From the NCBI RefSeq assembly GCF_003334405.1, contig NZ_QOWM01000004.1: a stretch of DNA of 64,000 nt. One strand, written 5' to 3'. Below, one piece after another: positions 39,775 to 42,730 of the stretch. Below the pieces are notes generated by a model. It did no database searches. It was not told where the DNA came from and saw nothing but the letters and a program-made list of their open reading frames with translations. The stretch's first letter is position 1. Each line of letters starts with the position of its first letter. The position numbers and the translations under genes are program-made. The stretch comes from Escherichia coli (lineage in GTDB: Bacteria; Pseudomonadota; Gammaproteobacteria; Enterobacterales; Enterobacteriaceae).

Positions 39775-40731
39775 TCACATCGCCGCTTCATTTTTCGCCC
39801 GTAGCTTCTTCGCCTGGCTTTCCAGCAACAGGTAACAGATCAGCGCCAGCAGCAGTGGGATAAAGTAATACAGCACACGGTAAGCGAGTAGGGCGGCGAT
39901 AATTGTACCTTTGGAGGTATGCTCCCCAGCCAGTAGTGCGATAAACACCGCTTCCAGCACACCGATCCCCGCCGGAATATGCACGATGACGCCAGCAATA
40001 CTACTAACCAGTAACACGCCCAGTACAAAGAAATAGTTCACGCTTTGACCAAGTAACAGCCAGATAATCGCCCCCATTACCATCCAGTTAACGCTGGAAA
40101 TCAGCATCTGAGCGAGGGCGAATTTCCATGAAGGCAGCACCAGCTTTTGCCCTTTGATGGTCATATGGCGGTGCTTCGCGAAAGCGCAAAACCACAAATA
40201 AACCGCGATAATCATCAGTAAGCCAATGCCGAGAATACGCAGCGTAGTTTGATCGACATACCAGTGATCCGGCAACTCCACCACGCCTGCGGTAAAGATA
40301 ATCCCTGCCAGTAAAATGTAGCCCAGCCAGTTGGTGGTAATACTGAGCGAGAAAATCCGCGTAATAGTGCTACCGGGCAACCCCAGACGAGAGTACAAAC
40401 GATAGCGCATACCAATGCCGCCGACCCAGGTACTGAGCGTCAGGTTGAAGGCGTAGCAGATAAACGACACCAGCATCACCTGGCGCTTCGCCAGTTTGTG
40501 ACCGCAGTAAAAGCGGGCGAGCAGGTCATAGCAGCCGTAAATCAGATAGCTGACGACCACCAGCCCGACCGCACTAAGCAGCGCAACGCGATTGTAGTCG
40601 CGGATGACCTTCCAGACCTCTTCCCAGTCCACTTTTTTGGCGTAGACCACCAGCAACACAATCACCGCGATAAAAAACAGCCAGGTGAGGATCTTCTTTG
40701 CTAAGCGCCAGCGCGGGTGTGATTTACTCAT
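39775..40731 (-). CDS. ybhN: Inner-membrane protein of the UPF0104 family (lysyl-PG-synthase-like membrane domain)
   Basis: 318-aa hydrophobic ORF; start overlaps the clsB stop; last gene of the ybhP-clsB-ybhN unit. Confidence 0.9.
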   Translation of the reverse strand: MSKSHPRWRLAKKILTWLFFIAVIVLLVVYAKKVDWEEVWKVIRDYNRVALLSAVGLVVVSYLIYGCYDLLARFYCGHKLAKRQVMLVSFICYAFNLTLSTWVGGIGMRYRLYSRLGLPGSTITRIFSLSITTNWLGYILLAGIIFTAGVVELPDHWYVDQTTLRILGIGLLMIIAVYLWFCAFAKHRHMTIKGQKLVLPSWKFALAQMLISSVNWMVMGAIIWLLLGQSVNYFFVLGVLLVSSIAGVIVHIPAGIGVLEAVFIALLAGEHTSKGTIIAALLAYRVLYYFIPLLLALICYLLLESQAKKLRAKNEAAM

Positions 40732-41972
40732 CAGGGTTTTACCCCCGTGTTTTCAGTTTCTACCCGATCCTGCGTTTCCATTGTCGGTTGTGCGGGCGGA
40801 TCAACCTGCGCCAGACGTGGCGTGTGTGCCGGAAGCCAGCCAACCAGCGCCGGGAAGTGGCGTAAAAAGTGGAACGCCAGCACGCTTTTGGTCAGGTTCC
40901 ACCAGGTGCGTTTGGGCAGCATGGTTTCATCCACCTGCTGACAATCTGCGGCAATAATGCCGTTCAGATTATCGCGCAGCGTCTGGTTAAAATGACGATC
41001 GTGGATGATGACATTTGCTTCGAGATTCAGTGACAAACTGAGCGGATCGAGATTACTGGACCCTACTGTCGCCCAGTGATCGTCCATCAATGCCACTTTG
41101 CCGTGGAGCGGGCGGCGGCGGTACTCAAAAACCTGAACGCCGCCTTTAACCAGATAGTTATACAGCAAGCGCGCACCGACTCTGACAATCGGCATATCCG
41201 GTTCGCCCTGAATGATCAGTTTGATCCGCACCCCGCGCCGTGCCGCTTTACGCAAGGCGTGTAAAAATCGATAGCCGGGGAAGAAGTAGGCGTTGGCGAT
41301 AATCACTTCCCGCCGCGCCTGAGTGAGCATTTTCAAATAATGGCGTTCAATATCATCGCGATGTTCTTCGTTATCGCGCCAGACCAGCAATACCTGCGCT
41401 TCTCCCGGCTGGCGGTTCTCTTCCGCTTTGTGATGACGTCGCCACCAGCGTCGTGCCGCGCTCTGTCCAGGCAGGTTTTCCAGCTCAAACTGGAGAATAT
41501 CTTCGACAATCGGCCCTTCAAGGCGTACCGCGTAATCCTGTTTAGCCTCTGGACCGTAGCTGGACATATGCTCGGCGGAGTAATTCAGCCCGCCAATAAA
41601 GGCTATACGCGCGTCGATCACCACAATTTTGCGATGCATCCGGCGAAACACATTGGTGCGCATACCAAAAAGGCGAGGGCGGGGATCGTAGTAGCGGAAC
41701 ACTACGCCAGCTGCCGTCAGTTCATTGACAAACTCATCGCTGAGATCCGGCGAACCGTAGCCATCCAGCAAGACTTCCGCTTTAACCCCGCGTTGCGCTG
41801 CTGCCAGTAGTGCCGCATGCAGTTGTTTGCCGACGTCATCCTCAAACCAGATAAACGTTTCAAGAATGATGCGTTCTTGTGCCTCGCCAATCGCCTTAAA
41901 CACCGCGGGATAATATTGCTCGCCGTTTTCCAGCAACTGGATCTTATTGCCTTCGCGCCAGCTACATTTCAT
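40731..41972 (-). CDS. clsB: Cardiolipin synthase B (phospholipase D superfamily)
   Basis: 413-aa ORF with two HKD motifs (HRKIVVID and HGKVALMDD…GSSN); no N-terminal TM anchor. Confidence 0.93.
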
Positions 41973-42730
41973 AAATGAATCTCCGCACTTAAAGGGGCAT
42001 GATCAGAAAGGTGTCGCCATGTCCGCAGCGGCAACGCGGTTGGCGCGCTGGCGCTGGCATTTTTGACGTAGATCCTGTCCAGTCGTAGTAGAGGAAATTG
42101 CACCGGAAACGTGCGCGCCGGGCGTCCGTGGGCGCGGGTAAAAATCTCATCCAGTCCGGCCTGCACTTTTAACGGATGATTAGCTTTTTGCCGCCAGTCA
42201 TTGAAATCACCCGCCACCAATACCGGTTCGCCGTCCGGTAGCTCATTCACCCATTCGGCGAGCATCGCAAGCTGCGCCTGACGGTGCGCCTCACGCAGGC
42301 CCAGATGTACGCACATCACATGAATCGCTTTTCCGGTCATCGGCGGCACAATGCGGCAGTAGAGCACGCCGCGCTTTTCCGCACCATCGACCGAAACATC
42401 GCGATTCTCATAATGTTCAATGGGATAACGCGACAGTACGGCGTTGCCGTGATGCCCTTCCGGGTATACGGCATTGCGACCGTAGGCAAAATCGCTCCAC
42501 ATAGTGTCGGCGAGAAACTCGTAGTGCGAGGTATCGGGCCAGTTTTCCACATGCAGCGGATGAACTTCGTGCGCGCCCATCACTTCCTGCAGGCAAACAA
42601 TATCGGCGCTGACGGTACGCACGGCGTCGCGAAGTTCCGGCAAAATGAAGCGTCGGTTAAACGCGGTAAAGCCTTTGTGAATATTGATGGTGAGCACCTT
42701 GAACGAAAATTGTTGTGTTTGATCGGGCAT
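41969..42730 (-). CDS. ybhP: Endonuclease/exonuclease/phosphatase (EEP) family protein
   Basis: 253-aa ORF; EEP-fold sequence; stop overlaps the clsB start (ATGA). Confidence 0.9.

Follow-up and report, generated by a model that had tools for sequence, protein, structure and literature searches.

The ybhP, clsB and ybhN genes of Escherichia coli lie side by side on the minus strand of contig NZ_QOWM01000004.1 (RefSeq assembly GCF_003334405.1), within a 64,000-nucleotide stretch of that contig that was analysed as a whole and is referred to below as the window. The original prediction placed three minus-strand genes here, and both their identities and their positions proved exact when compared with the open reading frames (Table 1). 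What lies here is the ybhP-clsB-ybhN operon already known from E. coli K-12, annotated and partly characterised. The 3351-base region that holds it is 100% identical in E. coli K-12 MG1655, and of 5426 complete E. coli genomes 5424 contain the locus, with its genes annotated under these three names. Work in Salmonella has treated ybhP-clsB-ybhN as one operon, and a plasmid carrying all three genes (pWSK29-ybhP-clsB-ybhN) brings back cardiolipin synthesis there; a preprint on YbhN, in which the protein was renamed PplT, draws the same operon. As a locus it brings no novelty or surprise, and the question that it raises concerns YbhP, a predicted phosphoesterase of the endonuclease/exonuclease/phosphatase (EEP) fold. 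Homologues of this protein recur in other bacteria beside, or fused to, enzymes of the phospholipase D (PLD) type to which ClsB belongs, and this linkage is the basis for the interpretation developed here.

Table 1. Positions of the operon genes, their junctions and motifs, the candidate regulatory elements and the adjoining genes (window coordinates).
Feature	Position	Strand	Description or basis
ybhP	41969..42730	minus	253 aa; cytoplasmic EEP-fold metal-dependent phosphoesterase by prediction (open reading frame listing)
clsB (ybhO)	40731..41972	minus	413 aa; anchorless PLD-type phosphatidyltransferase, cardiolipin synthase B
ybhN (pplT)	39775..40731	minus	318 aa; polytopic membrane protein, homolog of the MprF N-terminal transport (scramblase/flippase) domain
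ybhP stop/clsB start overlap ATGA	41969..41972	minus	sequence; ybhP TGA and clsB ATG
clsB stop/ybhN start overlap TGATG	40729..40733	minus	sequence; one common base, 40731
Shine-Dalgarno-like GGAG for clsB, within ybhP	41981..41984	minus	upstream 25 nt
Shine-Dalgarno-like G run (GGGGG) for ybhN, within clsB	40742..40746	minus	upstream 25 nt
HKD motif 1 of ClsB, H113-R-K-IVVI-D120 (H113/K115/D120)	41613..41636	minus	regular expression on translation; invariant in E. coli/Erwinia/Variovorax alignment
HKD motif 2 of ClsB, H290-G-K-VALM-D297 (H290/K292/D297)	41082..41105	minus	regular expression on translation
Aromatic/hydrophobic C-terminal segment of ClsB, about residues 352-385	40818..40919	minus	conserved in E. 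coli/Erwinia/Variovorax; not transmembrane
Candidate sigma-S-type -10 element CTACACT, ybhP promoter	42766..42772	minus	CTAYRCT in 66/77 upstream regions, inside a block at least 90% conserved
Perfect 8+8 inverted repeat TTACGGAA-AA-TTCCGTAA	42797..42814	minus	ybhP-ybhQ intergenic region; candidate operator with RcsB-box-like core
ybhQ	42863..43273	plus	small inner-membrane protein gene (YbhQ family), divergent from ybhP, common regulatory region
ybhL	38117-38821	plus	Bax-inhibitor-1/YccA-family membrane protein gene, tandem with ybhM, adjoins operon
ybhM	39026-39739	plus	Bax-inhibitor-1/YccA-family membrane protein gene, convergent on ybhN

The sequence bears out the earlier reading of both gene junctions, a four-base overlap between ybhP and clsB and a single base common to clsB and ybhN. 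Overlapping junctions are ordinary in E. coli: within 15 kb around the locus, five of eight junctions between genes on the same strand are of this kind. The conservation of these particular overlaps was followed in the best 80 Enterobacterales loci from different species, in which ClsB identity ranges from 67 to 99%. All three genes occur in the same order in 75 of these loci (the remainder being mostly truncated contigs), and among those 75 the four-base ybhP/clsB overlap is kept in 71 and the one-base clsB/ybhN overlap in at least 64, with a 9-nt gap in its place in four. A (G/T)GGAGAT run before clsB is conserved in the Enterobacterales junction sequences, and both overlaps are identical in Erwinia amylovora. 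Judged from these sequence features, the three genes are translationally coupled. The overlaps, the Shine-Dalgarno-like runs and their conservation thus fit one half of the proposed stoichiometric co-translation, but they do not imply a 1:1 output. Inhibition of LolCDE raises the ybhP, clsB and ybhN transcripts 17.6-, 12.3- and 4.4-fold, respectively, and an RpoS expression table gives 251 for ybhP and 7 for ybhO/clsB; such unequal changes along the operon argue against assuming equal production of the three proteins.

ClsB is the least understood of the three cardiolipin synthases of E. coli. It scores 751 bits against the NCBIfam ClsB equivalog model NF008427 (cut-off 281) and contains two PLDc_2 domains according to Pfam, each of the two expected HKD motifs being present. 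No transmembrane segment was recognised in the protein, the maximum Kyte-Doolittle value over 19-residue windows being 1.16 (threshold 1.2), and the literature likewise describes ClsB, as well as ClsC, as having no transmembrane domain. The two motifs and the lack of an anchor had both been called correctly in the original prediction. The conserved C-terminal segment of ClsB may dock on the membrane or on a partner protein. It was also considered as an amphipathic membrane helix and rejected as such, because its helical hydrophobic moment (0.07-0.38, against a protein mean of 0.27) is only average. A sequence search of solved structures with ClsB gave no match.

The substrate and product of the system had been called unresolved, and for ClsB this no longer holds. 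The enzyme is reported to make cardiolipin from two molecules of phosphatidylglycerol (PG) and, at a low level, PG from phosphatidylethanolamine, and in Salmonella clsB is genetically required for phosphatidyltrehalose and diphosphatidyltrehalose. An H290A substitution abolishes the activity of the Salmonella enzyme. ClsB contributes little cardiolipin in vivo, and the cardiolipin made by ClsB and that made by ClsC behave differently in a genetic test, for which the authors suggested differences in location or leaflet distribution. Trehalose phospholipids are made by four of six E. coli strains, BW25113 included, and the strains differ in this despite identical clsB coding regions. In the work of Reinink et al., BW25113 and DH10B were positive for these lipids and DH5alpha was negative. 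The DH5alpha derivative NEB 5-alpha is 100% identical to the window over positions 39600-42950, promoter included, which rules out a cis cause at this locus, and the strain difference therefore lies in trans. A second genome labelled DH5alpha (NZ_CP026085.1, locus L100; 4.83 Mb) was discarded from this comparison, since with 40 mismatches in 3351 bases it is not K-12-like at the locus.

The membrane protein of the operon was predicted to resemble the flippase-like domain of lysyl-PG synthases, and this likeness is clear. YbhN matches Pfam family PF03706 (LPG_synthase_TM) at 4.6e-15, and its residues 15-310 align with residues 40-342 of a solved MprF structure (9goe), which belong to the N-terminal transport domain (E 3.4e-22). 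Kyte-Doolittle analysis gives about eight hydrophobic segments. Against the model for bifunctional MprF the protein reaches 164 bits (cut-off 600) and covers only positions 3-301 of 841, without the synthase domain. The transport domain of Pseudomonas aeruginosa MprF is a demonstrated promiscuous scramblase, and the authors of that MprF study proposed that substrate preference comes from the attached enzyme, citing YbhN as an unfused example. In the PplT preprint, two-hybrid interactions were reported between YbhN and ClsB, PgpA, PgpB and PgpC.

YbhP belongs to the EEP fold as originally proposed, on the evidence of Pfam (PF03372, Exo_endo_phos, 3e-23), of a complete set of catalytic residues and of a confident AlphaFold2 model. 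In an alignment of 69 family members reaching down to 35% identity, conservation is 90% or higher, up to invariance, at N16, E49, N96, D175, N177, D218, D243 and H244, which together supply the full EEP catalytic set: the metal-binding Asn and Glu, the Asp-x-Asn, the further Asp and the Asp-His pair. The model (pLDDT 96) shows the four-layer alpha/beta sandwich of the fold. No 19-residue window of the protein exceeds a Kyte-Doolittle value of 1.2. A sequence search of solved structures gave only a marginal match to ExoIII. In a Foldseek search with the model, human neutral sphingomyelinase 1 was the top match, and inositol polyphosphate 5-phosphatases were not among the closest structural relatives.

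The complete active site bears on the possibility that YbhP is mainly a protein activator or chaperone of ClsB, with catalysis secondary. ClsC reportedly needs co-expressed YmdB, and a similar dependence of ClsB on YbhP would be the parallel. The clsA gene is likewise found in a two-gene operon, with yciU, and the small amount of cardiolipin made by ClsB in vivo would fit a limiting partner. However, the conservation of every EEP catalytic residue across the family, and in the fusion proteins described below, would not be expected of a purely structural partner, and clsB complements when expressed alone (see below). An activator role for YbhP is accordingly regarded as very unlikely.

Evidence on the role of YbhP comes from the genes found beside its homologues. 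The YbhP family comprises 381 representatives at E <= 1e-30. Outside Enterobacterales, twelve informative homologues (37-56% identity) were looked up individually, a small sample, and in seven of these contexts a cardiolipin-synthase-type PLD gene is adjacent or fused to the YbhP-type EEP gene. Among the PLDs next to these genes, two score above the cut-off of the ClsB equivalog model, a third resembles ClsB, and two more are generic cardiolipin synthases. Fusions of the two domains recur: there are three full-length examples (P0220, 648 aa; P0276, 645 aa; P0277, 710 aa) and two shorter proteins that combine both domains. P0220 and P0276 are 42% identical; in both, neither domain has lost a catalytic residue, and a transmembrane helix forms the C-terminus. 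The intact active sites and the membrane helix argue for a catalytic role of the YbhP-type domain, next to the PLD, at the membrane.

A third gene, of a scramblase family, recurs in these clusters. One distant locus (L087) has the full triad of EEP, PLD and PplT genes. In three metagenome contigs (L085, L086 and L093) that contain no PplT gene, the adjacent or fused EEP-PLD pair is adjoined by a gene for a DedA/VTT-domain protein, relatives of which have been shown to be scramblases. This gene lies directly upstream of the EEP gene in two of the three contigs, with a 4-nt overlap in L093. The DedA/VTT gene of L085 is in addition fused to a pyridine-nucleotide-disulfide oxidoreductase. These gene contexts suggest that the EEP-PLD pair is the conserved core, the YbhP-type EEP gene being, across bacteria, the one most consistently linked to a PLD of this type, and that the membrane partner alternates within the scramblase families (PplT or DedA). 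No published description of the EEP-PLD fusions or of the alternation between DedA and PplT was found, and both appear to be new here.

The same contexts bear on whether the operon is a functional unit at all. Its genes might be merely co-regulated, with ClsB acting alone, YbhN serving as a housekeeping scramblase and YbhP, induced by stress, acting on nucleic acids or nucleotides (as a nuclease or phosphoesterase) and not on lipids, so that the three have only stationary-phase regulation in common. PplT also gave two-hybrid interactions with PgpA, PgpB and PgpC, as would suit a housekeeping function, and YbhP has been annotated as a 'predicted DNase' in an RpoS study and has TDP2 and nucleases of the CCR4 and ExoIII types among its fold neighbours. 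The complementation by clsB alone, the lipid pattern of a pplT mutant and the homologues that lack a PLD neighbour, all described below, count on the same side. Against this, adjacency of EEP and PLD genes in seven of twelve contexts is far above chance for a family with a few copies per genome; the diverged fusions retain both active sites and a membrane anchor; the adjacent PLDs are of the cardiolipin-synthase type, not the nuclease type; and a gene of a scramblase family is the recurring third neighbour. Mere co-regulation is for these reasons considered unlikely.

A different question is which bond a YbhP that does serve ClsB would cleave. PLD-type transfer needs a free primary alcohol, and a phosphomonoesterase could feed ClsB by freeing its alcohol acceptor from a sugar phosphate or glycerol phosphate, or could pull the reaction by dephosphorylating a lipid intermediate. 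EEP monoesterases (inositol 5-phosphatases, nocturnin and ANGEL2) are found among the fold matches of YbhP. In two distant loci, L089 (1947-4753) and L090, an inositol-monophosphatase-family gene, a PLD gene and a YbhP-type EEP gene form a cluster in which PLD and EEP genes follow each other in the opposite order to that in E. coli. The inositol-monophosphatase-family gene of L089 immediately precedes the PLD-EEP pair, which suggests that clusters of this kind encode the supply of the acceptor. Yet the presence in L089 of a dedicated sugar-phosphate phosphatase besides the EEP argues that the EEP does something else. E. coli, moreover, already has OtsB and the Pgp phosphatases, and single otsA, otsB or pgpA-C knockouts do not abolish trehalose lipids. 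A phosphomonoesterase role thus seems distinctly unlikely.

The best explanation, one in which confidence only slightly outweighs doubt, is that the operon encodes a stress-induced module for lipid head-group remodelling, with ClsB as transferase, YbhN as scramblase and YbhP as lipid phosphodiesterase. The promoter of the operon, upstream of ybhP, would respond to stationary phase and envelope stress. ClsB, whose chemistry is known from the literature, is a peripheral, cytoplasm-facing PLD-type transphosphatidylase. It works through a phosphatidyl-enzyme intermediate, from which a primary alcohol receives the phosphatidyl group: PG as acceptor yields cardiolipin, glycerol yields PG, and trehalose yields phosphatidyl- and diphosphatidyl-trehalose. 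YbhN would hold ClsB at the membrane and scramble its products to the outer leaflet, so that the two would amount to an MprF divided between separate proteins. YbhP, which by sequence and model is probably a catalytically intact Mg2+-dependent EEP phosphoesterase, might cleave a phosphodiester in the manner of a phospholipase C, with a phosphatidyl-X lipid made or used by ClsB as the best guess for its target; it would thereby edit or turn over the output of a promiscuous transferase. Gene identities, junctions, domains and their conservation are established here; that YbhN docks ClsB and exports its products, and what YbhP acts on, are inferred, the latter from genomic linkage, and the contact between YbhN and ClsB comes from one two-hybrid data set.

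Several observations weigh against this proposal. In a Salmonella clsB knockout, which may be polar on ybhN, plasmid-borne clsB alone restores both trehalose phospholipids, and this complementation implies that the partners are not needed for catalysis. Deletion of pplT/ybhN leaves the lipid pattern on thin-layer chromatography unchanged and causes only a mild growth defect. A Variovorax chromid carries a ClsB-equivalog copy with neither partner within 4 kb, a 64%-identical YbhP being encoded elsewhere in that genome, and for five of the twelve distant YbhP homologues no PLD gene lies close by. In the structural comparison with YbhP, scores close to that of neutral sphingomyelinase are also reached by TDP2, nocturnin and CCR4-type nucleases, so that the fold does not tell a lipid substrate from a nucleic-acid one. 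The AlphaFold2 model of the P0220 fusion (pLDDT 88, pTM 0.68) has a disordered linker and is uninformative on whether the two domains pack in a fixed way. Finally, a full-text literature search for ybhP found no functional study of YbhP. The description of both partners as being of unknown role is out of date for YbhN, which has been studied as PplT and has a scramblase relative in MprF.

The idea of a three-part machine is a reasonable hypothesis in a weaker form than originally stated. The published two-hybrid interaction between YbhN and ClsB and the recurrent EEP-PLD pairs and fusions support an association of the parts, but an obligatory three-part machine is unlikely in view of the complementation by clsB, the unchanged chromatogram of the pplT mutant and the existence of partner-less homologues such as that of Variovorax.

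A broader proposal is put forward tentatively, with rather more doubt than belief. A YbhP-type EEP enzyme and a cardiolipin-synthase-type PLD might constitute a widespread two-enzyme core, sometimes present as one membrane-anchored fusion, that repeatedly recruits a PplT/MprF or DedA scramblase and that makes, edits and moves non-canonical phosphatidyl-head-group lipids (for example, the Mincle-stimulating trehalose phospholipids) to the outer leaflet during envelope stress. If so, YbhP would be the first cytoplasmic EEP lipid phosphodiesterase in bacterial phospholipid remodelling. Should YbhP and YbhN control the product of ClsB or its location, this could help to explain the strain variation in trehalose lipids. 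The conserved and sometimes fused EEP-PLD pair, together with the alternating PplT or DedA partner, makes the idea directly testable.

Of 77 Enterobacteriaceae regions upstream of ybhP, the 70 distinct sequences were aligned, and the alignment contains two blocks that are at least 90% conserved. The first is the inverted repeat, with at least 90% column conservation over the 70 distinct sequences and variable intergenic sequence on its flanks. The second, CTTTTTGTGAC-N4-GACTACAC(T), holds the candidate -10 element. The GGA-N4-TCC core of the inverted repeat is found in 60 of the 77 regions and matches six of the eight specified positions of the RcsB box, TN(G/A)GAN4TC(T/C)NA; the repeat would centre near -46 from the inferred transcription start. 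It is a candidate operator with an RcsB-box-like core, consistent with Rcs-type induction. Published expression data show that ybhPO expression is RpoS-dependent, that clsB rises about 9-fold in late stationary phase, and that LolCDE inhibition induces all three operon genes together with genes of the Rcs and sigma-S regulons, ybhP rising 17-33-fold alongside the Rcs regulon genes.

Other sigma factors have also been associated with this region. A Salmonella chromatin immunoprecipitation peak lies between ybhP and ybhQ. A conserved sigma-E promoter was considered and rejected: the -35 core GAACTT is present at 42814-42819 in E. coli, but no TCNAA -10 element follows it, and GAACTT occurs in only four of the 77 upstream regions. 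Minor sigma factors were surveyed by genomic SELEX in a study whose table extract, under a heading for flagella-related promoters, includes a site 'between ybhO and ybhP' with a low score (4.9); its K-12 position is 822944 (about 41970 in the window). A site at the ybhP/clsB junction could be an internal promoter for clsB-ybhN.

The divergent gene ybhQ, a possible fourth component of the system, is syntenic in 75 of the 80 Enterobacterales loci and also in Erwinia. At its 3' end it shares 39 bases with the convergent ybhR (43235-44341). On the other side of the operon, the convergent genes ybhM and ybhN are separated by only 35 bases, and no intrinsic terminator 3' of ybhN was recognisable in that gap. 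A Bax1-I gene is likewise convergent on ybhN in Erwinia amylovora (L002). In some E. coli strains, among them those of the genomes NZ_AP027622.1 and NZ_CP069093.1, insertion sequences are found inside the 3.35-kb region (IS1 in one, ISKpn26 in another) or between ybhM and ybhL (ISVsa5). An Rfam scan of the whole window gave a molybdenum cofactor riboswitch upstream of moaA (35145-35289, plus strand), two naRNA4 (CssrE) matches (24092-24162, plus strand, and 55821-55891, minus strand) and two ES036 (CssrF) matches (33839-33880 and 50543-50585, both minus strand). No tRNA genes were found within the window.

Several known systems invite comparison with the operon, neutral sphingomyelinases and EEP-type phospholipases C among them. 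The ymdB-clsC pair is said to resemble it in that an anchorless PLD-type cardiolipin synthase is encoded downstream of a soluble, enzyme-like accessory protein; the helper there is reportedly not an EEP enzyme but a macrodomain protein, and the operon is said to contain no scramblase-like gene. The clsB operon described in the literature for Salmonella and E. coli is the same locus with the same gene order, and the sequence examined here is that of K-12. A parallel in logic is offered by MprF, which has an N-terminal eight-transmembrane transport domain homologous to YbhN and which likewise pairs a lipid-modifying enzyme on the cytoplasmic face with a domain that moves the product across the membrane. 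The aminoacyl-PG synthase domain is found only in MprF, and E. coli makes no aminoacyl-PG; the partner of YbhN would instead be a separate PLD-type transferase. If the proposed module is real, it would give YbhP its first function and could provide, after MprF, a second example of such a pairing of enzyme and scramblase.

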